Shown: piece by piece, positions 48,330 to 64,000 of the stretch
Layout of the letters: each line of letters opens with the position of its first letter
Numbering within the stretch: the stretch's first letter is position 1
Assembly: GCF_988243305.1 (NCBI RefSeq)
Contig: NZ_OZ547136.1
Length of the DNA: 64,000 bases
Reading direction: 5' to 3' (one strand)
Position numbers and translations under genes: made by a program
Notes under the pieces: model-generated
What the model was told of the DNA's origin: nothing
Database searches by the model: none
What the model saw: the letters and a program-made list of their open reading frames with translations, nothing else

Positions 48330-48494
48330 ATGGCAAAGCCGATCATCACGCTCAATGGCCTAAAAATCGTCATTATGTTGGGAATGCTGGTCATTATTCT
48401 CTGCGGTATCCGTTTTGCCGCCGAGATCATCGTGCCGTTTATTCTCGCATTATTTATTGCTGTTATATATAACTTATTTCACATAACACGTTGA
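48330..48494 (+). pseudogene. tqsA: tqsA (AI-2 transporter) 5' fragment, truncated by island insertion after codon ~46
   Basis: [46 protein letters not shown] then island sequence (YNLFHITR*); remainder of tqsA resumes at ~63787. Confidence 0.85.
48458..48466 (+). repeat. attL core (TGCTGTTAT)
   Basis: Identical 9-mer at 63787-63795; sequence to the left is tqsA, to the right is island. Confidence 0.7.
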
Positions 48495-48538
48495 TTTAAT
48501 TAAATAATTTTCACCGCAAAAAGTGCCAAAAATCGCAA

Positions 48539-48597
48539 AATGACTACACCAGTGACTACACCGTTCGGTGCACTGTATGAAACAACGTGGAACAAAT
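48539..48597 (+). repeat. Arm-type direct repeat block, left end: tandem (A/G)TGACTACACC x2 followed by GAACAA-type repeats
   Basis: atGACTACACCaGTGACTACACCgttcggtgcac...gaaacaacgtggaacaa; homologous block at 63636-63708. Confidence 0.6.
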
Positions 48598-48827
48598 AGA
48601 CACAAGAAATATACAGGCGGATCATCTTTCCAGGGGGAAGCGCACCAATTCATGAGGGGCGTTAATGTCGATATGGGGATCCCCACCTACCGGAATTTTT
48701 TTCCGGTTAAACGTTAATCAGGCTGGTGGGCTTTACCTGTTCGGTAGGTGTTATGATTATCGTAATACCTTTCCCCCAATGGGGTAAAAGCATCAACCGT
48801 AACGAAAGTCGTTATGGTTGCCACTGA

Positions 48828-48899
48828 TACCCCAAATTTGGGTATCACGAGTAAGACCCAAAATCTGGGTGTTACTCTTACTACCCAAACTACGGGTAG
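48828..48899. repeat. Three consecutive inverted repeats with TACCC/GGGTA arms, plus a 20-bp perfect palindrome gagttgcagatctgcaactc at ~48919-48938
   Basis: taccccaaatttgggta, acccaaaatctgggt, ctacccaaactacgggtag read directly; function unknown. Confidence 0.5.
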
Positions 48900-49231
48900 T
48901 TTCCGTAGTTTCATGGTCGAGTTGCAGATCTGCAACTCCCCCATTAACCACAGGCGAATTTCCGCCTTCGGTCATTCCTTAATCATCTGCGTAATCATAA
49001 TGATTATTCAGCAAGCGCAATTTTGCACTTTGCTTAAAGTTCAGCGAGTTACCGCGCCGACTTCCTCAAATTGAGGTTTCCGAAAATATCAGCGGGTTAG
49101 CGATTAAGCTGATCATTAATTAAACTGCGAAAATTTCGTAGTTTGTGACTGTCTTTCAGGCAGCTTGTTAACAGTCCTCAGAAGCGAGGGATGTAGCCAC
49201 CCATTTTTGGTCCGTCGGGAATATCAACCAG

Positions 49232-49513
49232 TTACCGCCGCAACCGCTCCGGCTTCTTCCAGTGGTACGTTATTTTCTCCTTCTCCCGATACATCTCCAC
49301 GCGGCGACGGTAGGCCAGCAACTCAAGAACTCTGGTTCGTATGTTGCGCATATCCACGCCATTAAGTTCTATACCATCACGGCGCATCACCTCAGCAACA
49401 ACACGCGCATAGTTTTCGGCTGTCACGCTGTCCGGCTGCGTGGCCTGTTCGTCAGCCTGCTGGCTGATTCCGGCAACGCGGCGGATTAATCCCGTTATTT
49501 CGGCTTCTGTCAT
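49232..49513 (-). CDS. Hypothetical protein downstream of terminase
   Basis: 93-aa ORF MTEAEITGLIRRVAGISQQADEQATQPDSVTAENYARVVAEVMRRDGIEL... Confidence 0.4.
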   Translation of the reverse strand: MTEAEITGLIRRVAGISQQADEQATQPDSVTAENYARVVAEVMRRDGIELNGVDMRNIRTRVLELLAYRRRVEMYREKEKITYHWKKPERLRR

Positions 49514-49526
49514 GCTGCTGACCTCA

Positions 49527-51188
49527 TTACACCCCGCTAAATTCTTCCAGTTTCTGGCGGTGGCTGTCGCTTATATCAAAAGCAAAATCCTCATGCTCTG
49601 CCTGGAATGTACCAAACGCCATCAGCGCCGCCACGCTCGGGTCTATCTTGTTCGGTGATTTTTTCTTGTTCGGCTTGATATTGGCGTTCGCGTCACTCTG
49701 CATCACGACGTTACTCATCGACCAGGACAACACCGGATCGCCACGATGCACAATCACCCTGCGGTTAACAAAAACTTCGAACGATTTCGCCGCCGGACTG
49801 AATCTGAGGTAGGTTTGCGGGAACGGCTCCACCTCAAAACCTGCCCCCTGTAATTGCGTTCTGAGATGCGTGGCGTTCCACGTATCAAAGCCCACCAGCC
49901 TGATATTAAATTTCTCCGCGTCCTGCATGATGTCATCTCTGATCCGGTCGTAATCAATGCAGTCGCCAGGCGTTGTGCGTATCCAGCCTGCTTTAGCCCA
50001 CTGACGATAGATGGCGCGGTTTTTATTGGCGGGGTTCTGTAGCTGAAATTCCGGCAGATAGTGACGGGAAACCAGCATAATGGTTTTACCGACCGGAAAG
50101 GCATAGCACACGCTGGAAATATCGCTGGTTGATGATAAGTCCAGCCCCGCGTAACACTCCTGGCCGTGTAAATCTTCCTCCGTGAACGTTCCGGCACACT
50201 CAGCCCATGCGCCGTTACCCATCCACGGGGTAGCCCCCAGGCACCAGATATTAAATCGCTTTGTCATCATCTCCACCCACTGCGACGGAATACCCCGCGC
50301 TTTCTGGATGGTTGAGGCCAGTTTTTCACGATCCACGGAAACATCAATATTAGGGTTCGCCTTTATCCACATCGCCGGATCATCAACCTCGTTTTCGTCG
50401 TCCAGTTCGTAAATCAGTACAAAAATTGAATCGTTGACCTCTTCGCCGTCCAGGATCTGGCAGCAATAATCATAGTGCTGCTTACAGGCTGAAACGACGT
50501 TACTGCCTGATGTGGTAATAGCAAATAACAGCCCTTCGGGACGTGCGCCCATCCCCAGCTCAAGCGCGGAATAAACGCCGTTATCGGGGTGCAAGTGGTA
50601 TTCGTCCACGATGGAAAGGCTGGGGTTTGTTCCCTCGATGGTTGCCGCTTTTGCTGCCAGCGGCTTTAACAGGCTGTTGCTTTTCGGGTGTATCACCTTA
50701 TGCGCCTGAATATTCACCCGCCTGCGTAACGGTCGGGATAAAAGGCACATCTGACGCGCATCATCAAAGACGATCCGCGCCTGGTCACGGCTCACCGCTG
50801 CGGTGTAAATATCCTGCTGACCGTTCTCCATAATCAGAAACCAGTTAGCCAGAATCGCGGCGGTCGTGGATTTCGCATTTTTGCGCGGCACTTCGATAAA
50901 GGCGCTCGTGTATTTGCGCCGTCCGGTGGCCTTAACCTTAAAGCCGAGGATGCACGCAAAGGCGAACTGCTGCCACGGCTCCAGCTCAATGGGTCTGCCA
51001 CGCATCGGCCCTTTTACGTGCGGGCACACCCTGGAAAAGGCAATAAACCGCTCCACAACCTCACGATCGAACGTGTAAAGGGGGCTTTCAAGGTCCGAAA
51101 AGTACCGTTTAACGGCCTGTTTCAGCCGTTTACAGGCCGGAATTTTGCCCGTTTTTACGTCTTCTGCGTACTTATTCCAGGCGGTCAA
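49527..51188 (-). CDS. Terminase large subunit
   Basis: 553-aa ORF with ATPase Walker A-like region ...VPRKNAKSTTAAILANW... and C-terminal nuclease region; typical TerL size. Confidence 0.85.
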   Translation of the reverse strand: MTAWNKYAEDVKTGKIPACKRLKQAVKRYFSDLESPLYTFDREVVERFIAFSRVCPHVKGPMRGRPIELEPWQQFAFACILGFKVKATGRRKYTSAFIEVPRKNAKSTTAAILANWFLIMENGQQDIYTAAVSRDQARIVFDDARQMCLLSRPLRRRVNIQAHKVIHPKSNSLLKPLAAKAATIEGTNPSLSIVDEYHLHPDNGVYSALELGMGARPEGLLFAITTSGSNVVSACKQHYDYCCQILDGEEVNDSIFVLIYELDDENEVDDPAMWIKANPNIDVSVDREKLASTIQKARGIPSQWVEMMTKRFNIWCLGATPWMGNGAWAECAGTFTEEDLHGQECYAGLDLSSTSDISSVCYAFPVGKTIMLVSRHYLPEFQLQNPANKNRAIYRQWAKAGWIRTTPGDCIDYDRIRDDIMQDAEKFNIRLVGFDTWNATHLRTQLQGAGFEVEPFPQTYLRFSPAAKSFEVFVNRRVIVHRGDPVLSWSMSNVVMQSDANANIKPNKKKSPNKIDPSVAALMAFGTFQAEHEDFAFDISDSHRQKLEEFSGV

Positions 51189-51528
51189 GCTCGTCCTCTT
51201 CTTCTGTTTCCGGTGGATTTTTACGGCGGCTTATCGGGTCAAAACCGAGCAAGGAGGCCATTTTTATCATCACCCTTTCAGCGTCGGATTTTGCGCTTAA
51301 TGCGGGGTTTCTGCTCTCGCCGCCCTGACTGTTAACAATGCTGAACCCGCGCGCCGCAAGGTCTGCAACGGCTTTCCGGTAAATGGAGTAGTTGACACAA
51401 TACAGTTCCAGATTGCTCCAGTCGGCGGGGGTCAGGTCTCCCCGTTCCGCAAGCTGCCGCGATTTTTCCCGCCACTGCTTCACGGCGATGTCATCCAGGT
51501 AGGCGGGGGCTTTCGGTGGTCTTGCCAT
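51172..51528 (-). CDS. Terminase small subunit (P27-family-like)
   Basis: 118-aa ORF immediately upstream of and overlapping TerL. Confidence 0.55.
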   Translation of the reverse strand: MARPPKAPAYLDDIAVKQWREKSRQLAERGDLTPADWSNLELYCVNYSIYRKAVADLAARGFSIVNSQGGESRNPALSAKSDAERVMIKMASLLGFDPISRRKNPPETEEEDELDRLE

Positions 51529-51651
51529 ACTTATTTTTTCGCCAGATTATTTTTCAAAAAATTCCCGTGCATAAAAATTTGAGGAGGCGTTCGGTGCCCG
51601 GCGGGGTCGGGTTTGTCCTGAAAACGCCCCCCACCCCGTCATACAGCCTCA

Positions 51652-51834
51652 TCAGCGATTGCGGAAACATTCCATAACCTCGCGGTCACGGTCGGTTAAT
51701 CGCTTCGCTGTGATGCGTTCTGCGCGTCCTGACGCTTTATCTTTATGCCCTGTTTCCTGTGTCTTCCATGCGTCACGCTGCCTTATAAGTCCACGGATAA
51801 GGCGGTTTTGTTCCCGCTCATTCATCAGCGTCAT
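51652..51834 (-). CDS. Small hypothetical protein between HNH and TerS (start assumed at internal Met)
   Basis: MTLMNEREQNRLIRGLIRQRDAWKTQETGHKDKASGRAERITAKRLTDRDREVMECFRNR; fills otherwise empty 290-bp gap. Confidence 0.3.
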   Translation of the reverse strand: MTLMNEREQNRLIRGLIRQRDAWKTQETGHKDKASGRAERITAKRLTDRDREVMECFRNR

Positions 51835-52258
51835 ACATCCAGTTATTGCGGTTAGCGGACCGTTCTTCCTCTTCACGAAATCCACCTGCGGCACGCTTGC
51901 TTTTTGTTGCCGGATCAAGCCATTTCGTTTTCTGGTTATGACACGCCTGACACAATGGCTGATGGTTCCATTCGGGCCAGAAGAGAACATCATCGCCGCC
52001 ATCGATGGGGATAATGTGATCCACCACCACGGCGGGCGTATATATCCCCTTCTCAAGGCATCGCACGCATAACGGGTTTTTACTCAGATACATGGCGCGG
52101 TATTTGTCCCACTGTCTGGAGTACCCACGCGCGCGGCGGTGTCCTCGTCTGGCATCCTCTGCACGCCATGCCGCCCGCCTGTGCTCCTCACACTTACCGG
52201 ACTTAACGCGCCTGTTACAGCCTGGTTCTGTACATCGTCTTAATGGTTGCCACGGCAT
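51818..52258 (-). CDS. HNH endonuclease (terminase-associated)
   Basis: 146-aa ORF with Cys-rich N-terminus and HNH motif ...VVDHIIPIDGGDDVLFWPEWNHQPLCQACHNQKT. Confidence 0.8.
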   Translation of the reverse strand: MPWQPLRRCTEPGCNRRVKSGKCEEHRRAAWRAEDARRGHRRARGYSRQWDKYRAMYLSKNPLCVRCLEKGIYTPAVVVDHIIPIDGGDDVLFWPEWNHQPLCQACHNQKTKWLDPATKSKRAAGGFREEEERSANRNNWMYDADE

Positions 52259-52554
52259 CAGTACACCCCCACATCACGGTAAGCCGTCCAGAGTGCGCCT
52301 ATCGTCATGGGTACGCGCGTTTTTGCGTTATCCGCGACAATCTGGCGATTTTCATACAGGTGAGCGATAAACATCATGCAGCCAATCTTTATGGCTGGCG
52401 TGAACTCCAGCCCGTCATCAAAGCGCCTGCCTATGTGTATCTGGCACGCCTCAAGCGATGCGGCAATGTATCCGCTGATTAACTGGTCTTCATCGTCGCC
52501 ATCGATGCGGCAATGGAGTTTCACTTCTTCCAGGGTGATAAGTTCTTCTGTCAT
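52258..52554 (-). CDS. Head-tail connector protein (gp6-like)
   Basis: 98-aa ORF MTEELITLEEVKLHCRIDGDDEDQLISGYIAASLEACQIHIGRRF... Confidence 0.55.
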   Translation of the reverse strand: MTEELITLEEVKLHCRIDGDDEDQLISGYIAASLEACQIHIGRRFDDGLEFTPAIKIGCMMFIAHLYENRQIVADNAKTRVPMTIGALWTAYRDVGVY

Positions 52555-52889
52555 TTTTCCGCGCCCTCACGACAAAGAATTTCAAGGCGTGTCCTGGCGG
52601 CATCCGGCAACGGTTGCCCGATGATATTCAGTACACGCCCCGCCAGCGGCCCTGTATTGACCTTTATCCGACTGGTGGCGTTGATGTCCTTCCGGTAGCG
52701 TATCCATATCCTTACCGTTCCAGTCGCCAGCTCTGCACCTGATGAAATGGCCTCCTTGCTGCTGATCATGTTCACGCTTGCCCAGAGTGTGTGACCGTCC
52801 ACCCACGTTTCGAGTATTTCGCCGGTTATATCCCTGGTCTGTTTCAGGGTCTGAATCGTTACCCTGTCACGCAGTCGCCCTATGTTCAT
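52551..52889 (-). CDS. Head closure / head-tail adaptor protein
   Basis: MNIGRLRDRVTIQTLKQTRDITGEILETWVDGHTLWASVNMISSKEAISSG...; start placed at Met overlapping portal stop. Confidence 0.55.
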   Translation of the reverse strand: MNIGRLRDRVTIQTLKQTRDITGEILETWVDGHTLWASVNMISSKEAISSGAELATGTVRIWIRYRKDINATSRIKVNTGPLAGRVLNIIGQPLPDAARTRLEILCREGAEK

Positions 52890-54097
52890 TCCGGTTTTTC
52901 TCCCTCGCTGATTTTTACTTCCTGTTTCCATGCCTGGCTGAACTCATCACCACCATCACGCGGGGACAGCCCTTCACGTTCGCGGGCTTCGTTCGGGCAC
53001 ATAACGCCGGATTTGATGCCGCGTTCATAGGTGGCAAAGCGTTCGCCAGGTGTGGCCCGTAACAGGTCCGCGCTGTCAAACTCCACCTGATACCGGATAC
53101 CAGGTACAGGCGAGGCCACCAGCAGGGCGTTTTTTATCTGCTGCTCAAAGTTCGCCAGCCACGGGCGCATCGTCATGGTGAGAAATGCGCGGCTTGCCTC
53201 GCTGAAGTTGCTGTAGGTGCTGTTGCTGTATTCCTGCAAAAAAATCGGCGAGACGTTGAACATTCGGGCGATGTCTTCAATGGTGAAGCGACGGGAGGCC
53301 AGCCATTCGGCATCCTGATTACTCATGCCCAGCTGCTGATAGCTCATCCCCCCTTCAAGGATGGGCGTTTTTCCGGCGTTTCTGGCCCCTTTGTAGCGTT
53401 CCAGTGCGGCTAATGCCTGTTTGCCCTTCACGCCGTCCAGCCATTCGCCTGACGTGATAACCCCTGCCGCCATCATGCCATCACGCATCACGCTCGCGCC
53501 GTGGCGTTGTTGGGCCAGCCCAAGCCCCAGCGATTCGCGGCAGATGGTTACAGGTGAGCGCCCCATAAAACCGTCATCCGTGGAGTAACGAAGGTGGAGA
53601 ACCTCCCACGGTAAATAGTTGCGGGTGTTTCCGGTGTAGGCGTCAGTGATGCAGTAGCGCCAGTTATGATCACCTGTCTGCTCCACGTTCACCGACTGCG
53701 GCGGGTAAGGATGTAAAGCCACCGGAAAACCATCACGCCCCCACTGAATCACCGCATAAGCATTACCGTTTAACAGGCAGTGGCGGATCATCATTCGCTT
53801 AAACTGGTAGGGAGTCTGCCACGCGTTCGGGCGCTCGTTGAGGATGTGATCGACCGGATGAGAATCAAGCCACTCGCGGGCCTCCTTCCCCTTCTCATTG
53901 CGTACCAGGTACAGGTAACACGGCATGGTAGCCACCGCCTCAGAGATGACCGTCACGGCGTTCATGACGGCGGGCAGTGATTCCGCTGTCCCCGATGATA
54001 CGTACTCACCCGCCCCCGTGTTCGATGTGCCAGCCAGCGCCATAAACTCATCAAGCGTCATGCTGCGCTGCTCTTTTTTTCTTCTGAAAGGCCACAT
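52886..54097 (-). CDS. Portal protein (HK97 family)
   Basis: 403-aa ORF of typical portal size in a terminase/portal/protease/capsid cluster. Confidence 0.8.
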   Translation of the reverse strand: MWPFRRKKEQRSMTLDEFMALAGTSNTGAGEYVSSGTAESLPAVMNAVTVISEAVATMPCYLYLVRNEKGKEAREWLDSHPVDHILNERPNAWQTPYQFKRMMIRHCLLNGNAYAVIQWGRDGFPVALHPYPPQSVNVEQTGDHNWRYCITDAYTGNTRNYLPWEVLHLRYSTDDGFMGRSPVTICRESLGLGLAQQRHGASVMRDGMMAAGVITSGEWLDGVKGKQALAALERYKGARNAGKTPILEGGMSYQQLGMSNQDAEWLASRRFTIEDIARMFNVSPIFLQEYSNSTYSNFSEASRAFLTMTMRPWLANFEQQIKNALLVASPVPGIRYQVEFDSADLLRATPGERFATYERGIKSGVMCPNEAREREGLSPRDGGDEFSQAWKQEVKISEGEKPE

Positions 54098-54098
54098 A

Positions 54099-54671
54099 TC
54101 ACACCCCCGCTAAATCCACCCACCAGCGGCGATTATCCGCACGCGGCATTTTTTCGGGGTGCTGCTCATACAGGGAACGGCGGGCCAGCTCCACGCCGGA
54201 ATCGGGGTAAGCCGGTACCGATGTAACGGTAATTTCGTACAGTTCCGCCACCAGCACGGTGCGCACGCATGGATCTGTTGTGGTATCCCATACATCCTTA
54301 CGGGAGCGAAAGCCAAAGCTCATCCCCGAGATGTCCCCACGCTTAACCAGTTCGATAACGTCGCGCCCTGTACTGGTATCCGGTGGGGTCAGTTCAAAGC
54401 GTAACCCTGTTTCGTCCTCTTCCAGTTTCAGCGTGCCGGAACGGGTGCGCCCCAGTAACATGCTGTGGTCATGCTCATACAGGCCGCGAACGTCATTACC
54501 CGCCGCAAGCCACTCAGTAAACGCCCCCCGCTGGAATTTTTCGTAAAACTCCCCCCATAGCAGTTCTGAAAGCTTATCCCAGCGAACAACGTAGCCCGTC
54601 AGCGTACCGGCTCCGCTGGTAGTGATTTCCGATGACCGGATTTCCATACTCTTCATAATTTTTTCACCCAT
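54099..54671 (-). CDS. Prohead maturation protease (HK97 family)
   Basis: 190-aa ORF between capsid and portal genes. Confidence 0.7.
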   Translation of the reverse strand: MGEKIMKSMEIRSSEITTSGAGTLTGYVVRWDKLSELLWGEFYEKFQRGAFTEWLAAGNDVRGLYEHDHSMLLGRTRSGTLKLEEDETGLRFELTPPDTSTGRDVIELVKRGDISGMSFGFRSRKDVWDTTTDPCVRTVLVAELYEITVTSVPAYPDSGVELARRSLYEQHPEKMPRADNRRWWVDLAGV

Positions 54672-54710
54672 AAAACACTAAAGGGGCTTTTAAGCCCCTT
54701 CTGTATGCTG

Positions 54711-55868
54711 TTAATCGTCGTCCTGTGGCAGTTCCAGAATCTTGATCGCGTTCGAATCCACCACGCCACCGCCTAAATATTTCTGCGTGAAAATTTTGAT
54801 GAAGCCCGGCTCTGTGAGGTTGTCCGGTCTGGTGCGAACACCTGTTTCGTGATCAACAATGTAGTAACCGCGTTTGAAGTCACCCAGGGCAATAACGTTA
54901 TCCGGCATAAACTCCAGATATTCGACCGGAAGGCCCAGTAACGTATCAGGATCACCCGCCTGTAAACGGTCGCGCCAGATGTAATCACCGTTCGCGTTCT
55001 TCACCTTCTGAAGTTTTGCCGCCGTCGTGGAGTTAACCACCCAGACCGCGTTTTTGCGGTATTTTTTACGTAATGCAAATTTCAGGTCGATCAGCGGGTC
55101 CGCAGATGTCCACGCCAGAGATTCGGAAGGTTTAATTACCTGCAACGTACCAAAATCACGCTCTTTGTCGTTCTTCTCTGCACGGGGTACGGATAAAAAA
55201 CCTTTTGCTTTTTTGTCACCGTCGCCCACAACCAGATCGCTTTCTTCGGTTTCCGTGAAGGTGTCGCCAATCTCGCCCGTCAGCCATGAAAGGATGTCCA
55301 CATCGGAAAAATCCACGATTTCCTGTGTGGTGCGCGGGTACGCATAGACCGGATACAGCTTAATGCTCACCTCGTTAATCTGCGGGGTGCTGGTCTGTTC
55401 GCGTGTCTTACCCTCTTCACCGTGGTTAACGGTCGCACCGCCAGCGGAAACAAGCTGCTTAAACTCGTTGCTGCTGATTTTCTTCACGGTACAGATGCGG
55501 CGCATGGTGGACTCATCCGCCAGCATTCGCATGATTTCGGTGTTCAGTTCGGGGATAACGGTATAACCACCATCAGCGGGAACGCCTGTACTTAATGCGC
55601 GGGTTTCACCTGTCAGAATGTAGTTGCGTAGTTCTGCGGGGTCAGTGGTCTGGCTGCTTTTACCTGGCTTGCTGCGCTCTTCGTCTGCAATGGCTTCAAG
55701 GCGGGAAATGTCTTTATCGAGGGATTCAGCTTTAGCGCGTAATTCGTCAAATTTTGCGCCCTCAGCATCGTTAAGACTGCGGTTTTCTTTTTCCGCGTTC
55801 TCCAGCATGTCGCGCATCTGATTTTTAATGGCGGTTTTCTGCTGGCGTAATTCGATTATTCTCGGCAT
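54711..55868 (-). CDS. Major capsid protein (HK97 fold) with N-terminal coiled-coil delta/scaffold region
   Basis: MPRIIELRQQKTAIKNQMRDMLENAEKENRSLNDAEGAKFDELRAKAESLDKDISRLEAIADEE... then capsid domain; track ORF starts 15 codons upstream at a TTG. Confidence 0.8.
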   Translation of the reverse strand: MPRIIELRQQKTAIKNQMRDMLENAEKENRSLNDAEGAKFDELRAKAESLDKDISRLEAIADEERSKPGKSSQTTDPAELRNYILTGETRALSTGVPADGGYTVIPELNTEIMRMLADESTMRRICTVKKISSNEFKQLVSAGGATVNHGEEGKTREQTSTPQINEVSIKLYPVYAYPRTTQEIVDFSDVDILSWLTGEIGDTFTETEESDLVVGDGDKKAKGFLSVPRAEKNDKERDFGTLQVIKPSESLAWTSADPLIDLKFALRKKYRKNAVWVVNSTTAAKLQKVKNANGDYIWRDRLQAGDPDTLLGLPVEYLEFMPDNVIALGDFKRGYYIVDHETGVRTRPDNLTEPGFIKIFTQKYLGGGVVDSNAIKILELPQDDD

Positions 55869-56489: not shown

Positions 56490-56513
56490 AAAAAAAGCCG
56501 GATTTCTCCGGCT
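56490..56513 (-). terminator. Rho-independent terminator
   Basis: Hairpin agccgga-tttc-tccggct preceded on plus strand by AAAAAA (T-run on minus). Confidence 0.6.
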
Positions 56514-56563
56514 GTGTGATTAGCTGTCCTGGTAATTGCGCCATATTTCATCACCAGCACCAT

Positions 56564-56791: not shown

Positions 56792-56801
56792 CCTCACCCC
56801 C

Positions 56802-57212
56802 TCAGAACGGAATACCGTCACCGTAAGGGTCATCGCCTCCCGCTGGTGGCTGATTACCCTGTGTGCCTGTGGTTTTGCGTCTGTTCCCGCCAGGACGTGC
56901 CGCACGGGCACTGATTACGCTGTCTGCAATAACCTGCCAGCCCTGCCGCGTTTCTCCGTTCTGTCCGGTCCACTGGCTTACCTGCATCGTGCCGGATACG
57001 CTGGCAACATCGCCTTTTTGATGTTTAGCCAGGAAGTCGGCCTGTTTGCCAAATGCGATGACCGATAACCATAACGTCGCCTGTCCGTCCTGTGCCTGGC
57101 TGCATGGCAAAGATACCGCCATACGCGCCAGCGTCATCGGTGTGCCCTTGCTGGTCTGTTTTACCTGCGGGTCGTCCACCAGCCGCCCGTAAGCGGCTAT
57201 CTGTGCCGTCAT
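56802..57212 (-). CDS. Single-stranded DNA-binding protein (phage type)
   Basis: 136-aa ORF with OB-fold-like N-terminus, Gly/Gln/Pro-rich linker and acidic C-terminal tail DDPYGDGIPF. Confidence 0.7.
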   Translation of the reverse strand: MTAQIAAYGRLVDDPQVKQTSKGTPMTLARMAVSLPCSQAQDGQATLWLSVIAFGKQADFLAKHQKGDVASVSGTMQVSQWTGQNGETRQGWQVIADSVISARAARPGGNRRKTTGTQGNQPPAGGDDPYGDGIPF

Positions 57213-57409
57213 AATTCCACCTCTCCGGTTTTAACGTTGATGGTTGTTACCTGTTCCGCTTCGGCAATCTCCCGTTCTGTCAGCGTGGCAAAGTTTGCCG
57301 CCGCCGTGGTCATGAATGCGCTTATCAGGTCGGGATGTTCCTTCGCGTATCCTTCCCGCGTGTGGCGGTCTATCGTTCTGATTGCCACCTTTAAAGCGTG
57401 CTCAGTCAT
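57209..57409 (-). CDS. Small hypothetical protein (start at internal ATG to avoid the iteron region)
   Basis: MTEHALKVAIRTIDRHTREGYAKEHPDLISAFMTTAAANFATLTEREIAEAEQ... Confidence 0.35.
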   Translation of the reverse strand: MTEHALKVAIRTIDRHTREGYAKEHPDLISAFMTTAAANFATLTEREIAEAEQVTTINVKTGEVEL

Positions 57410-57469
57410 GTCTAACGCTTTATATTTTGGCTCTGTTCTGTCTCTGCGTTTTTGGGTCATTTCTCGCAA

Positions 57470-57665
57470 CCTCTCACTTTTTCGCCTCACTTTTTCAAGC
57501 GTCTCACTTCGTCGCAGTTGGGATTTTCGGTTTTTCTATGTGTGTGTTTCATAAGTATTTTTTTACCCCTCACTTTTGAGGATGTATACAGGTCGAAAAG
57601 TGAGGGAGAGCGGGCTAATTTTGGCCCTCTTTCTATCCCCCTCGCTTTTGCTCCTCACTTTTATA
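57470..57665. repeat. Island replication origin candidate: six or more CTCACTTTT iterons (one inverted) with an AT-rich stretch, directly downstream of the helicase gene
   Basis: cctctcactttttcgcctcactttttcaagcgtctcacttc...cccctcacttttgagg...cgaaaagtgaggg...ctcgcttttgctcctcactttta. Confidence 0.7.
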
Positions 57666-59061
57666 GCGGCGCTACATCATCCCCATCGATACGAATAACC
57701 CCATCTTTTTCCAGCTTGTACAGCCAGCGCCGGAAGTTTTTCATTTCATACCCCAGTTTTTTCATGTCATCACGTAACAGCGGGATCGTGCACTTGTCGC
57801 CGTTCTGTGTGCGTGAACGGATGCACCCCCATAGCGCGGTATGGTTTTCCGTCTTGTTCCCTGCCTCCTCGATGCGCTCCAGTTCAACAGGAGGGCGCGG
57901 ATCATCCACCACTACCAGCGACGTGATTAATTCACCGTCAGCGTCGGTAAAAAGCTCCACCACGCGTAAGTCATATGCGGCTTCTTTGAGTTCCTCCGCG
58001 TCCTTCATTTTGGTGCATGAGATAACCAGCGCTTCGCTTCCTGCGTCCTCCCTGCGTATCCGGTATTCAGCATCCAGCGAAGCACGAAATGCACTGGAAC
58101 CGCGCGCGCCTTTCGTCTCATCCTTGCCGGAATGGTGAACCACCAGCACCGTGGCCCCTGTGCGTCGTTTCAGTTCGTCACAACCACGGATAAACGCCCC
58201 CATATCACGGGAATCATTTTCATCATTCCCACCAAAGCAACGCGCCAGCGTATCCAGAATAATCATGCGTACAGGTTTACCCGTTTCCCGCTCCACCTGA
58301 CGGGCAGCGATAACCATTTCATCAACATCAAGCGGGGCAGCCGGAAAGATGGGGCGGTTTACCAGATACAGATTTTTCACCTGCTCATCGTGCACAACCT
58401 CCCAGGCTTTTACACGACGCGGAACACCTATACCGCCTTCACCAACCACATAGAGAACCGCACCATGTGCAACCCTGCGGCCTCCCCACTGGCGACCAGT
58501 GGCAACATGGCACGCCCACGATCCGGCAAGGAATGATTTATAGGACCCGCTAGCCCCGTATATGCTGCATAGCGATACCGCCGGAATAATCCCCTTAACC
58601 ACGTAATCCAGTTGCGTGTCGTATCCGGTAGATCCAACGCTCATCGGTAGCGTGGTTTTTCGCTGGTGGTTTTTTTCTTCCACCGGCTCTTTCCCGCGCA
58701 CCCGTTCCAGGTATTCGCGCCAGTTCTCCCGCATATGGCTGTGCATCCCTTCGGGGTAATAATTCGCATCAGTTACACCCGCCGCCGCCAGCTTGTGCGC
58801 AATGGCATTAATATTTGATGGCCTGATGTGGCCTGCCTTGTACAGCCGGACACAATAGCGCCCCTCGTCGATGATTCTCAGGTCTGCCAGTTCATCCAGT
58901 TGATCATCAGCCAGCACAACGGGAGGCACATTATCGCCAGCCAGTCGCCCGTCCTGTTCCTGCCACTGTTTCGCATGTGCCCAGGCATCACTACCCGCAA
59001 AAATAATGACTTCGGTCATCTTGTCGTAAGGCTGTTTTTTTAAGTTCGGTGCGCTTTTCAT
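57661..59061 (-). CDS. Replication initiator / helicase-like RecA-fold ATPase (RepA/DnaB-like)
   Basis: 466-aa ORF with Walker A GASGSYKS and RecA-like C-terminal domain; followed by iterons. Confidence 0.65.
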   Translation of the reverse strand: MKSAPNLKKQPYDKMTEVIIFAGSDAWAHAKQWQEQDGRLAGDNVPPVVLADDQLDELADLRIIDEGRYCVRLYKAGHIRPSNINAIAHKLAAAGVTDANYYPEGMHSHMRENWREYLERVRGKEPVEEKNHQRKTTLPMSVGSTGYDTQLDYVVKGIIPAVSLCSIYGASGSYKSFLAGSWACHVATGRQWGGRRVAHGAVLYVVGEGGIGVPRRVKAWEVVHDEQVKNLYLVNRPIFPAAPLDVDEMVIAARQVERETGKPVRMIILDTLARCFGGNDENDSRDMGAFIRGCDELKRRTGATVLVVHHSGKDETKGARGSSAFRASLDAEYRIRREDAGSEALVISCTKMKDAEELKEAAYDLRVVELFTDADGELITSLVVVDDPRPPVELERIEEAGNKTENHTALWGCIRSRTQNGDKCTIPLLRDDMKKLGYEMKNFRRWLYKLEKDGVIRIDGDDVAPL

Positions 59062-59357
59062 TTCTTGCCCCTGAATCCGTTAATCATGGTTTTCAGCTTC
59101 TGGATGTTTGCCCGTGCCCTGGCGTTGCTGGTGGGCACGTTATGCGGCGCGGTCTGTACCAGAGAAAAATCACGCCGGAACTGATAAACAGGCATCACGC
59201 AATCATATTCGTAACCTTCACGGCGGTAGGTTACGCGCCGTTCTTCCACGCCCTTAATCATTACCGTGCCGCCGTACTGGTCGCGGTAAATATCACCGCG
59301 CGTAAATTTAGGGTGAGTGTTGCCACTGGCAGTTAAGCCAGAATATTTAAGTTTCAT
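59058..59357 (-). CDS. Hypothetical protein
   Basis: 99-aa ORF translationally coupled to helicase gene. Confidence 0.4.
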   Translation of the reverse strand: MKLKYSGLTASGNTHPKFTRGDIYRDQYGGTVMIKGVEERRVTYRREGYEYDCVMPVYQFRRDFSLVQTAPHNVPTSNARARANIQKLKTMINGFRGKK

Positions 59358-59362
59358 TATTT

Positions 59363-59596
59363 TTATTCTCCGGTGTGCTGTTCTTTATATCTGTCGTGCA
59401 ATAGATCTATTTCTTGCAGTTCCATTATTACAGGCTCAAGAAGCGTTATTAATGCCGTGGCAATTCTTGATTTTTGTTTGTCGCGTTCATTGTCGCCAAG
59501 TGTTTCAAGCCATATGCGCAATATTTCCAGCATGTTTTCACTGTGAGAAAGTGCAAGAAATACGCGGTCTATTGTTTCGTGGTAAATATCACGCAT
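59363..59596 (-). CDS. Hypothetical protein
   Basis: 77-aa ORF in same-strand small-gene array. Confidence 0.4.
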   Translation of the reverse strand: MRDIYHETIDRVFLALSHSENMLEILRIWLETLGDNERDKQKSRIATALITLLEPVIMELQEIDLLHDRYKEQHTGE

Positions 59597-59597
59597 A

Positions 59598-59819
59598 TTA
59601 ATCCCCGTCCGTCGTTTTTCTTAAAATAACCTCTGTCACGAAATCAGCATAATCGGCGGCGATATTCAGTACATCAAGCCCCGTTGATTTATATTCTCTC
59701 GTGGAAAGTAAGAAAAAAGCCGCTCTAATAAGTTCTGGCATTGACGAAAGCGCATCAGCCGCATCATCAGGAACGCCGGAAAATTCCTGTTTCAGGGAAT
59801 TAAAACGATCATCACGCAT
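59598..59819 (-). CDS. Hypothetical protein
   Basis: 73-aa ORF in same-strand small-gene array. Confidence 0.4.
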   Translation of the reverse strand: MRDDRFNSLKQEFSGVPDDAADALSSMPELIRAAFFLLSTREYKSTGLDVLNIAADYADFVTEVILRKTTDGD

Positions 59820-60034
59820 AACCCCCCCCCATTTTCACAATCAGCAACAAGAATATTTTTAGCGTCATTCAGCGACCGCGTTGCGATGTATCGGATACAT
59901 TCCAGGGCGAACTGTGTCCGGTCTTTCTGTTCTTCTCCCTGCGCAAGCTCTGCAGTGCATTCAATATCGATAAGCGCGTGCATCAGCGTAGTGAGCGCGG
60001 CGGCTGCTGCGTCCGGTGTGGTTTTATTGCACAT
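59792..60034 (-). CDS. Hypothetical protein (start at internal Met)
   Basis: MCNKTTPDAAAAALTTLMHALIDIECTAELAQGEEQKDRTQFALECIRYIATRSLNDAKNILVADCENGGG... Confidence 0.35.
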   Translation of the reverse strand: MCNKTTPDAAAAALTTLMHALIDIECTAELAQGEEQKDRTQFALECIRYIATRSLNDAKNILVADCENGGGLCVMIVLIP

Positions 60035-60314
60035 GGCACACCTCCTGACGAATACGGGCGGCGAATACAGCAACACAACCGGACGGGCAACGGCTACGCG
60101 CTTCGCGTTCCGTCCAGGCGGTTACGTGGATGATTTGAGATTCTCCGGCACTTAGTGCCAGAAAACGCCACACAAAGGCCGTTTGTGTGTGTATAAGGCG
60201 TGGTATATGATTTACGGCAACCATAACGGCTCCTAGTTTACGTTGTTGGTTAGACGCCCCGTATGTGTTCCCAGCACTGCGGGGCGTTGATTTTTGTGTA
60301 ATGGCAAGTACAAT

Positions 60315-60358
60315 GGTAATTACCATGTAGGTATAGTAATGAAGGGTAATTACCATGT
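60315..60358. promoter_or_regulatory. Two copies of operator-like palindrome GGTAATTACCATGT, the second overlapping the RHH gene start codon
   Basis: caatGGTAATTACCATGTaggtatagtaatgaaggGGTAATTACCATGtca. Confidence 0.6.
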
Positions 60359-60528
60359 CAACACCATTAGAAAAACGTTCGCCTCCATACCAAATGCGAT
60401 TACCGGAAGACTTCAGAGCGCAGCTAGAAGAAGCAGCTAAGGCCGATGGCGACACATCTTTAGCCACTTGGATTAAACGCGTTCTCCGCAAAGAATTACA
60501 GCAACGCGGCATAGAGCCAAAAGGTTGA
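60355..60528 (+). CDS. Ribbon-helix-helix (Arc/CopG-like) DNA-binding protein
   Basis: 57-aa product MSTPLEKRSPPYQMRLPEDFRAQLEEAAKADGDTSLATWIKRVLRKELQQRGIEPKG; RHH-like beta-strand (MRLPEDF) then helices; too short for ORF track. Confidence 0.55.
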   Translation: MSTPLEKRSPPYQMRLPEDFRAQLEEAAKADGDTSLATWIKRVLRKELQQRGIEPKG

Positions 60529-60549
60529 ATTTCAGAAGGAGATAAAATA

Positions 60550-60702
60550 ATGAACTGGCTGTTACATACCCTCCCAGGTCGCATTCTCATTGCACTAATT
60601 ATTTTATGGATTTTGTACCAATTCGGTTTTTTCGATTCGCTTTGGAAGCCTGACTGTTCCGTTAACCCTGGCGATGTACTGAAAGGCTGTAAAAATGGCT
60701 GA
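60550..60702 (+). CDS. Small membrane protein (50 aa)
   Basis: MNWLLHTLPGRILIALIILWILYQFGFFDSLWKPDCSVNPGDVLKGCKNG; SD aggagat; followed by hairpin ccctctt/aagaggg terminator. Confidence 0.45.
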   Translation: MNWLLHTLPGRILIALIILWILYQFGFFDSLWKPDCSVNPGDVLKGCKNG

Positions 60703-61057
60703 TCAGGGTTACTCCCTGTAATGCCTTTAACTGGCCCTCTTAAAGAGGGTTGGTTATCTTCGCAGCTCTCTACGTTTTTCGTCGGAACCTCTGAACCTAA
60801 GCAGTGTTGATGTTCAGGAGAACCCGAATACTGTTCGTGTTCGTTGCTCGCCAATTCTCGCGTTTCGCGATAATCAAAATGATTCAATGGGTTGAGATGT
60901 CCGTACGTTAAACGTACGCGGTTAATTTGTACATGCGAATTTCGTCGGCTCAAATTCTGCGCAACCCTGCTTGAGTTATGCAAATAGCACGCGGCTAACT
61001 CACAAGGATTTGAGCGCCCCCAAACGGGGGAGCGCAAAATTTTAGGCATAAGACGCA

Positions 61058-61771
61058 TCAGCGAATCTCCAACACTGACGATGAAGTGATCAGGCTGGCG
61101 AACGCATCCATACGGCGGGCAACCTCACGCACCGCATCGCCTGGACTCATGTCATTACGCACCGCCTCATTAAAGGCCGCCTGTTCGATTTTCTGCATCA
61201 CTACCAACAGCCCCAATTGCTGTTCGTCTGCGGTACCGCGTTCACCATCAGACAAACCAGCCACGCGGTTTTCAGCGCGGGCCAGATTGATGTAATGGTG
61301 CCGTTGTGCGCCCAGAGCTTTTAATCTGTCGCGGCTTTCGTGATAGCCAGGCAGGTACTCACGGCGGATAGGTTCTGCGGCGCGGCGCTTAGTGAATGCC
61401 TTCGTAACATCCAGTTTGAACTGGTTAATACGCTCAGGATCACGCCCTCGGGTGATACGCAGCAGATAGTCGAGCTGCGGCTCATTCAGCAGATAACTAA
61501 TCTCAGGACGCCCACGCTTTCGGCCGGATTTTCCCGATTTCAAATCGGTTAATTCCTTGAGTGACTGACGAGGCAGTGATCCCAGCTCGCGCAATCTGCT
61601 CTGGTGCGATTTAATCGTCGCGCTTAAGCTTTCATGTTGTATTCCGGCTCGCTCTGAAATAACGCGGGAATCGATACGCGGCTCCGATTTGTGATTAATT
61701 AAAATATCGCTCTGGCTGGCTTCAGGGCGAACGAATCCCCGCCCACGTTCTGGCGTATATTCAATCTTCAT
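61058..61771 (-). CDS. Phage regulatory protein (Rha-family-like), assignment tentative
   Basis: 237-aa ORF; N-terminal ...ILINHKSEPRIDSRVISERAGIQHESLSATIKSHQSRL... resembles Rha-type regulators. Confidence 0.4.
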   Translation of the reverse strand: MKIEYTPERGRGFVRPEASQSDILINHKSEPRIDSRVISERAGIQHESLSATIKSHQSRLRELGSLPRQSLKELTDLKSGKSGRKRGRPEISYLLNEPQLDYLLRITRGRDPERINQFKLDVTKAFTKRRAAEPIRREYLPGYHESRDRLKALGAQRHHYINLARAENRVAGLSDGERGTADEQQLGLLVVMQKIEQAAFNEAVRNDMSPGDAVREVARRMDAFASLITSSSVLEIR

Positions 61772-61828
61772 GGTTATAGCTCTGTGTTCAGATGATTGAT
61801 GTGTGGCGGCTGCGTGCCGCCAGCGTGA

Positions 61829-62017
61829 TTAATGAACTGCCTTGCAGCTATCCTTCCAGGCCAGAACCTCGGATAAAGACCAGCCAACGGAACGACCGCC
61901 AAGTTTACGACGTGATGGGAATTGTCCGGCCTTTTCCAGGCGGTAGCGACACGTACGGCTAAGGCCGGTTAGTTTTTCGCATTCTTTTTCACGTATAAAC
62001 CGATCAGTGCTTAACAC
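61829..62017 (-). CDS. alpA: AlpA-family transcriptional regulator / excisionase
   Basis: 62-aa ORF ...EKLTGLSRTCRYRLEKAGQFPSRRKLGGRSVGWSLSEVLAW... (AlpA HTH pattern). Confidence 0.7.
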   Translation of the reverse strand: MLSTDRFIREKECEKLTGLSRTCRYRLEKAGQFPSRRKLGGRSVGWSLSEVLAWKDSCKAVH

Positions 62018-62290
62018 TATTGCCCCCTTTCGTTTCTTAAAGAGTCATCAGGTGTCTTATTGTGTCGTATTGTTCCCGCTAGAGTGATAAATGGCAAATA
62101 CTGAGGATGTATGATTTACAGAAAATGAAACAGTAAGAATAAAATCTTTTAAATTCATGTTAATACAAAGGCATAAAATATTGTTTCATGCCTTTTTTCT
62201 CGCTCTTTAAAGAGTGATTCGCTAGTGTATAAAAAACCAGTAACGCATTAAAAATCAGCTACTTATAAATCCGTACGCTTTTTCGCCTCT

Positions 62291-62340
62291 TGTTCGTAGT
62301 TGTTCCACATTGTTGCTCATTGTTGCACGTTGTATCTGTT
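62291..62340. repeat. Five tandem 10-bp repeats TGTTnnnnnT (GAACAA-type on minus strand) between int and alpA
   Basis: tgttcgtagt tgttccacat tgttgctcat tgttgcacgt tgtatctgtt read directly. Confidence 0.55.
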
Positions 62341-62381
62341 CGCATATACAGTATGCGCATACTGAAAAAACACGAAAAAAA

Positions 62382-63599
62382 TTATTTTCTTCTGGCTACT
62401 GGTAGCGTGGTTACGTTTTCATGTGTTCCCGCCAGTATCCCTAACCGCTCCGTCCACATATCCAGCGCATTGCGTTTAGCATCCAGATAACGGGAATGAT
62501 TATAAACTCGCTGCATTCCTGGCATCTGGTGGCCTGTAAGCTGCTCCACGACATGCGGATCAACGCCTAAATCGTTCAGCATGGTTGTAAAGGTGCGCCG
62601 GATGTCATGCAGTGACCAGTGAGGATGATTAAGCCTCCTGTGCGCTAATCTTCCATACTGCGATACGCTGGCCTCCTGTTTCACTTCCCCCAGCAATAAG
62701 CCCGTGTGCCTGTTCTGCTCCACCAGCTGCGTGACGAACGGCAGGATCGCTTCCGGTATGGGCCGGAATATTGCGACCTTCGTTTTGCTGTGCTCCTTCG
62801 GAACGGTCCATAGCATTTCCGTAAAATCCCACTCCCCGATCTCCGATAACCTCAGTTCTACCGTTCTGGCTCCGAAGACAATCAGGAGGCGGATTAACGC
62901 GACGTAGTAAGGGGAGAATATTTTTTTGTCCAGTGCCTGCAATAATTCGCCAAGTTCTTTGTTACTTAAGACACGTTCGCTTATATCCGGTTTTTTCCCA
63001 ACGTCCGCCACGTTCAGATCGTCCAGAACGTTGCTGATTGCATAGCGCCGCCTACGGCAGAACTTAAGCGCCTGTTTGCACGCCTGTAGCACGAATCCGG
63101 CAGTAACAGGCGTTCGCTTTGCCACCTGGTCAAAACAGGCCAGCCAGTGCCGTAGCTCGCATTTATCCAGCGGCATAGCACCAATCTGCTGTATTACGTG
63201 ATTATTAAGTCGCCTTTTCAGGGCGATATAATCCACGCGGTTTTCCTTTACGTAATACTCAAGCCAGTAGGTGAGCGCATCGCCAACCGTTACGGGCTTT
63301 AACGCTTCCTGTACGGTGTAATTCATCTCATGACGTGGATTTTTCCCCTCAGCCAGCCATGTGCGACACTGTGCGGCTTTTTCCCTGGCTGCTTTCAGGC
63401 TCAGATCAGGATAACTTCCCAGCTTAATGCGTTCGGGTCGTGTCTCCCTTCCCGTTCCGGCCCTGTATGTGAAATACCAGGTCAATTTCCCTGATGTTAA
63501 ATATTTCACGCTCAGGTTTCCGCCATCACTATAAAACGTGTTTTTCTCCGCTGGCTTACCATGAAGTTTCCTTAGCAAGGTATCGCTCAGTTTGTTCAT
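62382..63599 (-). CDS. int: Tyrosine integrase (P4-like, PICI-type)
   Basis: MNKLSDTLLRKLHGKPAEKNTFYSDGGNLSVKYLTSGKLTWYFTYRAG...; C-terminal ...HDIRRTFTTMLNDLGVDPHVVEQLTGHQMPGMQRVYNHSRY; track ORF starts 4 codons earlier at GTG. Confidence 0.9.
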   Translation of the reverse strand: MNKLSDTLLRKLHGKPAEKNTFYSDGGNLSVKYLTSGKLTWYFTYRAGTGRETRPERIKLGSYPDLSLKAAREKAAQCRTWLAEGKNPRHEMNYTVQEALKPVTVGDALTYWLEYYVKENRVDYIALKRRLNNHVIQQIGAMPLDKCELRHWLACFDQVAKRTPVTAGFVLQACKQALKFCRRRRYAISNVLDDLNVADVGKKPDISERVLSNKELGELLQALDKKIFSPYYVALIRLLIVFGARTVELRLSEIGEWDFTEMLWTVPKEHSKTKVAIFRPIPEAILPFVTQLVEQNRHTGLLLGEVKQEASVSQYGRLAHRRLNHPHWSLHDIRRTFTTMLNDLGVDPHVVEQLTGHQMPGMQRVYNHSRYLDAKRNALDMWTERLGILAGTHENVTTLPVARRK

Positions 63600-63635
63600 T
63601 GCTCTGCTCACGTTTTACCCCCTCTTTACGAAAAA

Positions 63636-63708
63636 GTGACTACACCAGTGACTACACCGATCGTTGCACAAAGGGCTACAACGTGAAACAAGCTGGAACA
63701 AGGAAAAT
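63636..63708 (+). repeat. Arm-type direct repeat block, right end (GTGACTACACC x2 plus GAAACAA/GGAACAA)
   Basis: gtGACTACACCaGTGACTACACCgatcgttgcac...gtgaaacaagctggaacaa; matches left block at 48539-48597. Confidence 0.6.
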
Positions 63709-63786
63709 CACAAATCTGTTGATAATCAAAAACATAATGCACAGCCTGAAACATTATGAAACAGCAAAAAACACTAAATGATAAAA

Positions 63787-63795
63787 TGCTGTTAT
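63787..63795 (+). repeat. attR core (TGCTGTTAT)
   Basis: Identical to 48458-48466; tqsA sequence resumes here. Confidence 0.7.
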
Positions 63796-64000
63796 TCTTA
63801 ACCCGCTGGTGCAACACATGGTCCGCTGGCGAGTGCCGCGTGTACTGGCGGTGTCGATTTTGATGACCATCATCGTGATGGCGATGGTGTTGCTGTTAGC
63901 TTATCTGGGTTCCGCACTCAACGAGTTGACGCGGACGTTACCGCAATATCGCAACTCTATTATGACGCCGCTGCAAGCGCTTGAACCGTTGTTGCAACGC
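63787..64000 (+). pseudogene. tqsA: tqsA 3' portion (continues beyond window end), separated from its 5' end by the island
   Basis: In-frame [69 protein letters not shown], contiguous with the 48330-48466 fragment once the island is removed. Confidence 0.85.

Follow-up and report, generated by a model that had tools for sequence, protein, structure and literature searches.

The tqsA locus and the inserted island

In the window, the whole stretch of 64,000 nucleotides that we analysed, the E. coli gene tqsA, which encodes the AI-2 exporter, starts at position 48330, and its native sequence extends to position 48466, base 2 of codon 46. The gene resumes at position 63796, and its 3′ part leaves the window at position 64000. 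The upstream neighbours ydgD-mdtI-mdtJ-ydgV are present in the window, in agreement with the conserved gene order mdtJI-ydgV-tqsA-pntBA; the downstream genes pntB and pntA are visible only in the comparator genomes, as the window stops at position 64000. The two parts of tqsA are separated by an island with the following features.

48330..48466, + strand: 5′ fragment of tqsA, codons 1–45 and the first two bases of codon 46 (same sequence as intact tqsA at 137/137 nt)
48458..48466, no strand assigned: attL copy of the 9-bp core TGCTGTTAT (strains 14EC001 and 042 have the same core in attL)
48467..63786, – strand for nearly all genes: body of the putative satellite island (Pfam and PHROGs assignments)
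49527..55913, – strand: capsid/packaging module (HK97-type major capsid, S78 prohead protease, portal, head completion protein, gp6-like connector, HNH, TerS and TerL)
56564..59357, – strand: replication/regulation module, including DUF4222 (Pfam/PHROGs)
56564–56911, – strand: PerC-family regulator, within the replication module
56802–57212, – strand: SSB, within the replication module
57661–59061, – strand: RepA-like AAA_25 helicase, within the replication module
61829..62017, – strand: AlpA-family regulator/excisionase-like gene (Pfam Phage_AlpA, E = 5e-17)
62382..63611, – strand: tyrosine integrase of 409 aa (Pfam Arm-DNA-bind_3, Phage_int_M and Phage_integrase)
63787..63795, no strand assigned: attR copy of the 9-bp core TGCTGTTAT
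63796..64000, + strand: 3′ portion of tqsA, which begins with base 3 of codon 46 and continues to codon 114 (same sequence as intact tqsA at 205/205 nt)

The core TGCTGTTAT forms a perfect 9-bp direct repeat on both sides of the island and corresponds to codons 43–46 of tqsA. When position 48466 was joined to position 63796, an unbroken TqsA reading frame was obtained, and the empty site rebuilt in silico (495 bp) was 100% identical to intact tqsA in at least 10 complete genomes. Both fragments showed 0 nt differences from the intact tqsA of strain WP4-S18-ESBL-07. In the occupied gene, the third base of codon 46 is supplied by the island, and the change is synonymous (ATT to ATA, Ile). A tblastn search of the 64-kb window with full-length TqsA returned the two fragments as its only matches, the 5′ fragment matching residues 1–56. 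ARAGORN detected no tRNA at either junction; the only tRNAs in the window are located at positions 7814–8070.

A preliminary description of this DNA had claimed that tqsA is split after approximately codon 46 by an integrase-bearing island. Alignment with an uninterrupted tqsA confirmed the junctions, with which the core repeat and the reconstituted site agree. We conclude that the island entered the start of tqsA by site-specific recombination. The possibility that an assembly or scaffolding error joined the island to tqsA has a probability close to nil, since the identical junction recurs in 246 independently assembled complete genomes; moreover, a perfect core duplication flanks the island.

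Counted with one core copy, the island measures 15,329 bp, and at least 80% of the query 48300–64000 (the island with short tqsA flanks) was present in 59 complete genomes. The Pfam families matched in the packaging module were Phage_capsid, Peptidase_S78, Phage_portal, Phage_HCP, Phage_connect_1, HNH and Terminase_4, and TerL matched both ATPase and nuclease domains. No tail or lysis families were found with Pfam and PHROGs among the main island ORFs of at least roughly 50 aa, although several small ORFs have no assigned function. The length between the core repeats lies within the range of capsid-forming PICIs (cf-PICIs; about 10–18 kb), and the island carries the expected integrase, AlpA, RepA-like AAA_25 helicase, SSB and DUF4222, together with capsid, protease, portal, connector, HNH and terminase families; neither genes for lysis nor a full tail module was found among these ORFs. 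Judged from its genes, the island is a predicted cf-PICI-type phage satellite, and we infer that it is mobile and dependent on a helper phage. In Gram-negative PICIs, induction requires the activation of alpA by the helper phage. Typical cf-PICIs are transferred in small capsids of their own, to which the tails of the helper are attached.

Other parts of the island yielded less. A Rha-like match was weak and fell under the Pfam cut-off. A 344-aa ORF (60024–61058, – strand) was considered as cargo and rejected; it had no Pfam match, and as its last 66 aa alone matched Icd-like/repressor PHROGs, it was treated as a mechanically extended ORF. An Rfam scan of positions 47900–64000 at E ≤ 0.1, which included the hairpin-rich 760-bp non-coding left end, detected no RNA families, and a promoter/terminator scan of the island left end gave nothing above the shuffle expectation.

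Products of the divided gene

Two features determine what can be made from the fragments of tqsA.

48330..48494, + strand: truncated 54-aa ORF, consisting of 46 TqsA residues, 8 island-encoded residues (YNLFHITR) and a stop (ORF list and sequence)
63779..63784, + strand: two adjoining stop codons, TGA TAA, in frame with tqsA; a single codon separates them from the first native codon downstream, GCT (Ala44, 63788–63790)

The truncated ORF agrees with the earlier claim that the 5′ fragment ends as a 54-aa product, and this stub had no Pfam match. The 3′ portion had been said to lack a start and a promoter, and this was borne out by the two stops upstream and by a simple consensus scan limited to sigma-70-like sites, in which no such promoter was found on either strand between positions 63300 and 64000. 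The two in-frame stops also rule out an N-terminus supplied by the island; a search for an in-frame replacement from the island accordingly found none.

In the cryo-EM structure of TqsA, helix H1 (Thr7–Phe29) provides the major cytoplasmic contact of the pentamer, and helix H2 spans Ala31–Trp57 (PMC9475539). The break lies inside H2, in the middle of the helix, and the pentamer-forming H1 is cut off from the remaining protein; therefore, loss of TqsA transport function is likely from the structure. The Pfam domain AI-2E_transport is also cut, the 3′ remnant corresponding to profile positions 32–326 of 327. Shortly after the junction, there are an in-frame GTG (Val51) and an in-frame ATG (Met54), at which a weak internal restart might occur.

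The split gene could still be functional if the 3′ portion were expressed from an outward island promoter and an internal start, or if the two fragments complemented each other in trans. We regard this as very unlikely. The two internal codons lie soon after the junction, and a small + strand ORF annotated by PGAP in related genomes ends just before the 3′ part, both of which would suit such expression; however, the TGA TAA pair stands directly upstream of the 3′ part, the region 63300–64000 lacks a sigma-70-like promoter, and no Shine-Dalgarno-like sequence was seen by eye before Val51 or Met54. In addition, a product starting at Met54 would be without the helices that make the pentamer contact (H1 and nearly all of H2), and the direction of int transcription leads away from the 3′ part of tqsA.

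We consider it highly probable that a cf-PICI-type satellite is integrated in tqsA and that the strain, as long as the island is in place, is most likely TqsA-null. In the mechanism we propose, the tyrosine integrase would recombine the 9-bp attP core TGCTGTTAT with the identical sequence at tqsA codons 43–46. The insertion leaves a promoter-proximal 46-codon stub that ends after 8 island codons, as well as a 3′ remainder of tqsA without a promoter or a start. Precise excision at the core would restore tqsA exactly.

A tqsA-null genotype is thus predicted for this strain from the 64 kb of its genome that were available. Deletion of tqsA in K-12 was reported to increase intracellular AI-2, lsr expression, biofilm formation and motility (summarised in PMC9475539). 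However, E. coli has three AI-2E paralogues (YhhT, YdiK and PerM), and PMC9475539 still describes AI-2 as no more than a ‘probable substrate’ of this family; for these reasons, the phenotypic effect of tqsA loss may be small.

Integrase and attachment modules at tqsA and phoQ

The island integrase is 99% identical to the tqsA-site integrases of 14EC001, 042 and O55:H7, with 2–3 residues different. Despite these near-identical integrases, the cargo modules differ among the tqsA islands of 042, O55:H7, 14EC001 and the window. Two sister islands located between the phoQ 3′ end and roxA show approximately 80–98% nucleotide identity to the island over most of its length, att arms included, and a further sister island occupies the same site in O157:H7 (Z1833). 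The first base of the phoQ-site core, AAATATGTCC, is the final base of the phoQ stop codon, and phoQ is therefore left intact. The following repeats were found in the att arms of the tqsA island.

48541..48562, + strand: left att arm, with tandem (G)TGACTACACC repeats that are candidate arm-type sites for the integrase
63636..63658, + strand: right att arm, on the int side, with tandem GTGACTACACC repeats

In phoQ-type islands, the counterpart in the left arm reads TTGACTACACC/TTAACTACACC. The two types thus carry different arm repeats, and a 32-nt attP core cassette is swapped between them, the tqsA-type cassette containing the tqsA core. Their integrases are about 90% identical; 36–43 residues differ, 31–38 of which lie within the first 200 aa, so that the divergence is mainly N-terminal.

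These comparisons bear on the possibility that the insertion in tqsA is an off-target event at a secondary site of an integrase with its normal target elsewhere, for example at the phoQ 3′ end. Near-identical islands occupy the phoQ-roxA site in 598 genomes, and Bobay et al. proposed that disrupted-gene sites with few occupants are secondary sites (PMC3603311), which would fit such an event. Nevertheless, we find it highly improbable: the tqsA-site integrase is a distinct allele (2–3 residues different among four tqsA islands, versus 36–43 from phoQ-site integrases), it is accompanied by its own 32-nt attP core cassette with the tqsA core and by its own arm repeats, and the junction is identical in 246 genomes. 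The tqsA-type and phoQ-type modules could serve as a natural minimal specificity-switch pair with which to map the determinants of target choice. The integrase-attP contrast is a tidy natural example of retargeting, yet an incremental one.

Elements with the same target have been described. Eco282.16.tqsA, Eco33.11.tqsA and Eco557.15.tqsA (PMC7192596) disrupt the same UPF0118/AI-2E domain and are 11–16 kb long by their naming; the comparison is by description only, and the cf-PICI packaging, the RepA helicase and the rare Rha-like variable region of our island may differ from theirs. The tqsA PICI of E. coli 042 has the same attL/attR junctions and the same alpA, RepA, SSB and PerC backbone, and its integrase differs by 3 residues. 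This element, however, is about 11 kb long, contains a different major capsid gene and a head-decoration gene, and lacks the HK97-type capsid/portal/terminase module; it was classed as a classical PICI, not a cf-PICI, and is possibly EcCIO42 of Fillol-Salom et al. (2018). The cf-PICI prototype EcCIEDL933 is 15.4 kb long, compared with 15.3 kb for our island, which is known from its genes and likened to the prototype by description. We considered whether the phoQ-site island of O157:H7 is EcCIEDL933 and rejected this identification; as annotated, that island is a classical PICI; its capsid gene is a different one, and it also has a head-decoration gene and a TerS gene. A search for EcCIEDL933 with the O55:H7 replication module as the query did not return O157:H7 genomes among its matches.

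Use of the tqsA attachment site across E. coli

The preliminary description had also called the integration of a P4-like integrase into a protein-coding gene notable. The first part of this claim stands: the integrase has an arm-binding domain at its N-terminus (Arm-DNA-bind_3) as well as a catalytic tyrosine-recombinase domain, and the combination of Arm-DNA-bind_3, Phage_int_M and Phage_integrase is an architecture typical of P4-type integrases. In contrast to P4-type tRNA islands, with attB in the 3′ end of a tRNA or tmRNA gene, attB here is tqsA codons 43–46, and tqsA is not regenerated by the island. The event is less notable than was claimed, as tqsA is a known site that is occupied at an appreciable frequency: the same int-attR-tqsA junction was found in 246 of 5,426 complete E. 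coli genomes (4.5%, about 1 in 22), and the intact tqsA site in 5,159. Among the approximately 263 complete genomes without the intact site, none contains a further copy that spans at least 80% of the 495-bp probe. Earlier, tqsA was reported among prophage-disrupted core genes in 2013 (Bobay et al., PMC3603311) and listed as a ‘regulated gene integrity’ (RGI) candidate in 2020 (Mageeney et al., NAR, PMC7192596), and eight dedicated attC sites have been reported for E. coli PICIs (PMC6092414). The insertion site is thus already published, and it is a recurrent, documented attachment site.

Under RGI, the island would be a reversible switch whose regulated excision restores tqsA and provides adaptive control of AI-2 export. 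Several observations are in line with this idea. The candidate listing of tqsA comprises several de-duplicated elements with a tight integrase clade and disruption of the same domain (PMC7192596), and in our data the AI-2E_transport domain is likewise cut, the junction is shared by 246 genomes (a count of genomes and not of phylogenetic events), and the integrases at this position in 042, O55:H7, 14EC001 and the window are at least 99% identical. If the island were excised at the 9-bp core, an exact tqsA would be rebuilt, and in three divergent lineages the 3′ remnants still have 301 open codons, with 0–2 amino-acid changes. However, the intact remnants are uninformative because sequences within the species differ too little for one to expect decay, and helper-driven excision via alpA would presumably accompany lysis, leaving no viable tqsA+ cell. 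We therefore consider RGI unlikely. A Stx prophage in mlrA is similarly site-specific, inside a coding sequence and exactly restored on excision; an excision phenotype is reported for mlrA, according to an entry in the reference list of PMC7192596, whereas we found no such experiment for tqsA.

It is quite unlikely that the integration itself is selected, such that switching off the AI-2 exporter alters AI-2 signalling to the benefit of the satellite or the host, with occasional precise excision as a reversible switch. If it were selected, possible effects would concern helper-prophage induction, superinfection or biofilm behaviour.

The reading that we prefer, a cf-PICI-type satellite resident in tqsA, opens no new question as an event. 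The tqsA-occupied genomes include the well-studied strains 042 and O26:H11 11368, and the occupancy of tqsA by PICI-type satellites is relevant to comparisons of AI-2 or biofilm behaviour across strains.

Island junctions in tqsA

In the window, the conserved E. coli gene block ynfA...ynfM-asr-ydgD-mdtI-mdtJ-ydgV precedes tqsA, the AI-2 exporter gene, which is interrupted by an island as follows:

48330, + strand: start of tqsA
48330..48494, + strand: truncated ORF of 54 aa (mechanical ORF list)
48458-48466 and 63787-63795: perfect 9-bp direct repeat TGCTGTTAT
63779-63784: TGA TAA, two stops in the tqsA frame, one codon upstream of GCT
63788-63790: GCT (Ala44), first native tqsA codon after the island
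63796, + strand: tqsA 3΄ part resumes, running off the window end at 64000

Joining position 48466 to 63796 restored the TqsA frame without interruption, and the reconstructed 495-bp empty site was 100% identical to intact tqsA loci of other complete genomes. Alignment with the uninterrupted tqsA of strain WP4-S18-ESBL-07 confirmed the junctions (5΄ fragment, 137/137 identical; 3΄ fragment, 205/205). These results bear out the preliminary description, according to which the island splits tqsA after codon ~46 and leaves a 54-aa product: the ORF comprises TqsA residues 1-46, followed by YNLFHITR and a stop. As a refinement, only the first two bases of codon 46 are native, and the synonymous third base is island-derived. 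A tblastn search with full-length TqsA yielded no further match in the window beyond the two fragments, and no tRNA gene was found near either junction.

The same int-attR-tqsA junction (matches covering 80% or more of a 405-bp probe) was present in 246 of 5,426 complete E. coli genomes (4.5%), including E. coli 042, O26:H11 11368, O103 strains, PCN033 and E110019, and the intact site was found in one piece in 5,159. With 246 independent assemblies carrying the junction, an assembly artefact has next to no probability. In none of the ~263 genomes without an intact site does any second stretch elsewhere cover 80% or more of the 495-bp probe; therefore, a compensating second tqsA copy is not the rule at the population level. 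Very probably, a satellite of the capsid-forming PICI (cf-PICI) type has integrated site-specifically at the 9-bp core, codons 43-46 of tqsA. The resulting allele is likely null and would be repaired if the island excised precisely.

Fate of the split gene

Downstream of the two stops, the earliest in-frame start-type codons are GTG (Val51) and ATG (Met54), and inspection of the sequence by eye revealed no Shine-Dalgarno-like sequence ahead of either. A consensus scan of both strands from 63300 to 64000 detected no sigma-70-like promoter, and int transcription points away from the 3΄ fragment. The stops and the lack of a sigma-70-like site support the earlier statement that the 3΄ portion has neither a start nor a promoter. 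The island supplies no replacement for the broken part of tqsA, whose frame is blocked by TGA TAA.

According to the TqsA cryo-EM structure, the pentamer makes its main cytoplasmic contact through H1 (Thr7-Phe29), and H2 (Ala31-Trp57) is a horizontal helix embedded in the membrane (PMC9475539). The break after residue 46 thus lies inside H2 and cuts H1 off from the remaining TqsA. The 3΄ remnant spans positions 32-326 of 327 in the Pfam AI-2E_transport profile, and the 54-aa stub had no Pfam match. Because H2 is broken, H1 is separated and the AI-2E_transport domain is cut, TqsA function is likely lost; residual function of the split gene is very unlikely, given the in-frame stops, the promoterless 3΄ part and the missing H1/H2. 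Three AI-2E paralogues also exist in E. coli, and the structure paper goes no further than naming AI-2 a "probable substrate" (PMC9475539). In 14EC001, 042 and O55:H7, PGAP calls both tqsA halves pseudogene fragments, and the 3΄ remnant is still open over 301 codons with 0-2 amino acids changed, which is expected at so low a divergence and says little about selection.

Mageeney et al. suggested that such an insertion may act as a regulated switch (PMC7192596). However, PICI induction is tied to the activation of alpA by a helper phage, so we infer that excision would accompany lytic development and leave no viable tqsA+ cells, which makes a switch unlikely. That tqsA inactivation is both adaptive and reversible seems quite improbable.

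Island content and class

The insert is 15,329 bp long, one core copy included, and its genes lie nearly all on the minus strand. From attR toward attL (the right and left island ends in tqsA), the order is:

Tyrosine integrase, 409 aa (Arm-DNA-bind_3, Phage_int_M, Phage_integrase)
AlpA-family gene
61058-61771, - strand: weakly Rha-like ORF, 237 aa, below Pfam's cut-off
Small ORFs, one Icd-like
DUF4222
RepA-like AAA_25 helicase, small ORF, SSB, PerC-family regulator (56564-56911, - strand)
HK97-type major capsid, S78 prohead protease, portal, head completion protein, gp6-like connector
HNH endonuclease, TerS (Terminase_4), TerL

The literature discusses a role for PICI-borne PerC and RgdR homologues in regulating the LEE pathogenicity island. 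Among the main island ORFs scanned, no tail or lysis family match was found. By the published sequence criteria for cf-PICIs (a length of 10-18 kb; an integrase with modules for regulation and replication; an own capsid/packaging module; no lytic genes or tail module), the island has the content of a cf-PICI.

A conserved 93-aa ORF (phrog_1561; 49232-49513, - strand) lies at the far end of the island. The rare variable region 60290-61830, which adjoins alpA, also holds an Arc-like 57-aa ORF (60355-60528, + strand) and a hydrophobic 50-aa ORF (60550-60702, + strand); at least 80% of its length occurs in 0 complete E. coli genomes, and 65% in three. The 344-aa mechanical ORF at 60024-61058 (- strand) has no Pfam match. 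Since matches to Icd-like/repressor PHROGs are confined to the C-terminal 66 aa, a short Icd-like gene is probably the real one. The left end (48467-49230, ~760 bp) contains no convincing gene and no Rfam match, and has several short hairpins (e.g. ACCCAAAATCTGGGT and GTTGCAGATCTGCAAC). With at most 3 mismatches, the motif AACAACGTGGAACAA has 11 occurrences in the window, compared with 2.2 expected, nine copies being inside the island. They are mostly tandem with 10-bp spacing, and occupy both att arms, the int/alpA interval and the intergenic stretch that precedes the capsid operon:

48581-48595
56085-56109
62290-62334, - strand
63677-63701

All of these may be bound by a single DNA-binding protein of the island, either AlpA/excisionase or the integrase.

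Outside the island, positions 1 to ~27130 look like a portion of a lambdoid prophage with terminase, exonuclease and excisionase genes, and only 41 complete genomes match 80% or more of the first 24 kb:

7814-8070: tRNA-Arg (tct) and tRNA-Met
~25850-27130: prophage integrase, adjoining rspB

Attachment sites at phoQ and tqsA

Several island matches lacked tqsA flanks; these near-identical islands were located between phoQ and roxA, a site occupied in 598 of 5,426 genomes, O157:H7 included. The first base of the 10-bp core there, AAATATGTCC, coincides with the final base of the phoQ stop codon, which leaves phoQ intact. The segments for comparison are:

2965-2974 and 17750-17759: segments in L002, a sister island at the phoQ site
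48467-48500 and 63760-63795: window segments to compare with L002, L003 (a second sister island) and L006 (the O157:H7 island)

The phoQ-site integrases are ~90% identical to the tqsA-site integrase; 36-43 residues differ, 31-38 of them within the first 200 aa (arm-binding and core-binding regions), and the catalytic half is nearly invariant. Both arms of the reconstructed attP are almost identical between the types, except that a 32-nt cassette around the core differs at equal length and that the tandem arm repeats are GTGACTACACC in the tqsA type versus TTAACTACACC in the phoQ type. The integrase differences, together with the changed cassette and repeats, show that a dedicated, retargeted integrase/attP allele made the tqsA insertion; given this distinct allele, an off-target phoQ-type event is highly improbable. 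At the sequence level, the integrase N-terminus appears to co-vary with the arm repeats and core, and the two types look like a natural retargeting pair.

Integration into a protein-coding gene had been considered notable. However, tqsA appears in the list by Bobay et al. (2013) of core genes that integrating prophages disrupt in E. coli (PMC3603311). Mageeney et al. (2020) named it as one of 19 new candidates for "regulated gene integrity", its UPF0118 domain being disrupted by the elements Eco282.16.tqsA, Eco33.11.tqsA and Eco557.15.tqsA (PMC7192596). Fillol-Salom et al. (2018) described eight dedicated attC sites for E. coli PICIs (PMC6092414), and the cf-PICI paper six attB sites, four in common with classical PICIs. 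The mixed islands at tqsA agree with this picture: strain 042 carries a classical-type PICI of ~11 kb with another major capsid gene and a head-decoration gene, whereas O55:H7 has cf-PICIs with a DUF5906 primase, and 14EC001 and the window have cf-PICIs with a RepA helicase. Across the tqsA-site islands, the integrases are only 2-3 residues apart. Thus, the preliminary observation and its main interpretation were correct overall, although a documented site would not surprise a specialist. The insertion took place at an attachment site that E. coli phage satellites use recurrently and that had been described before, and it raises no new question.
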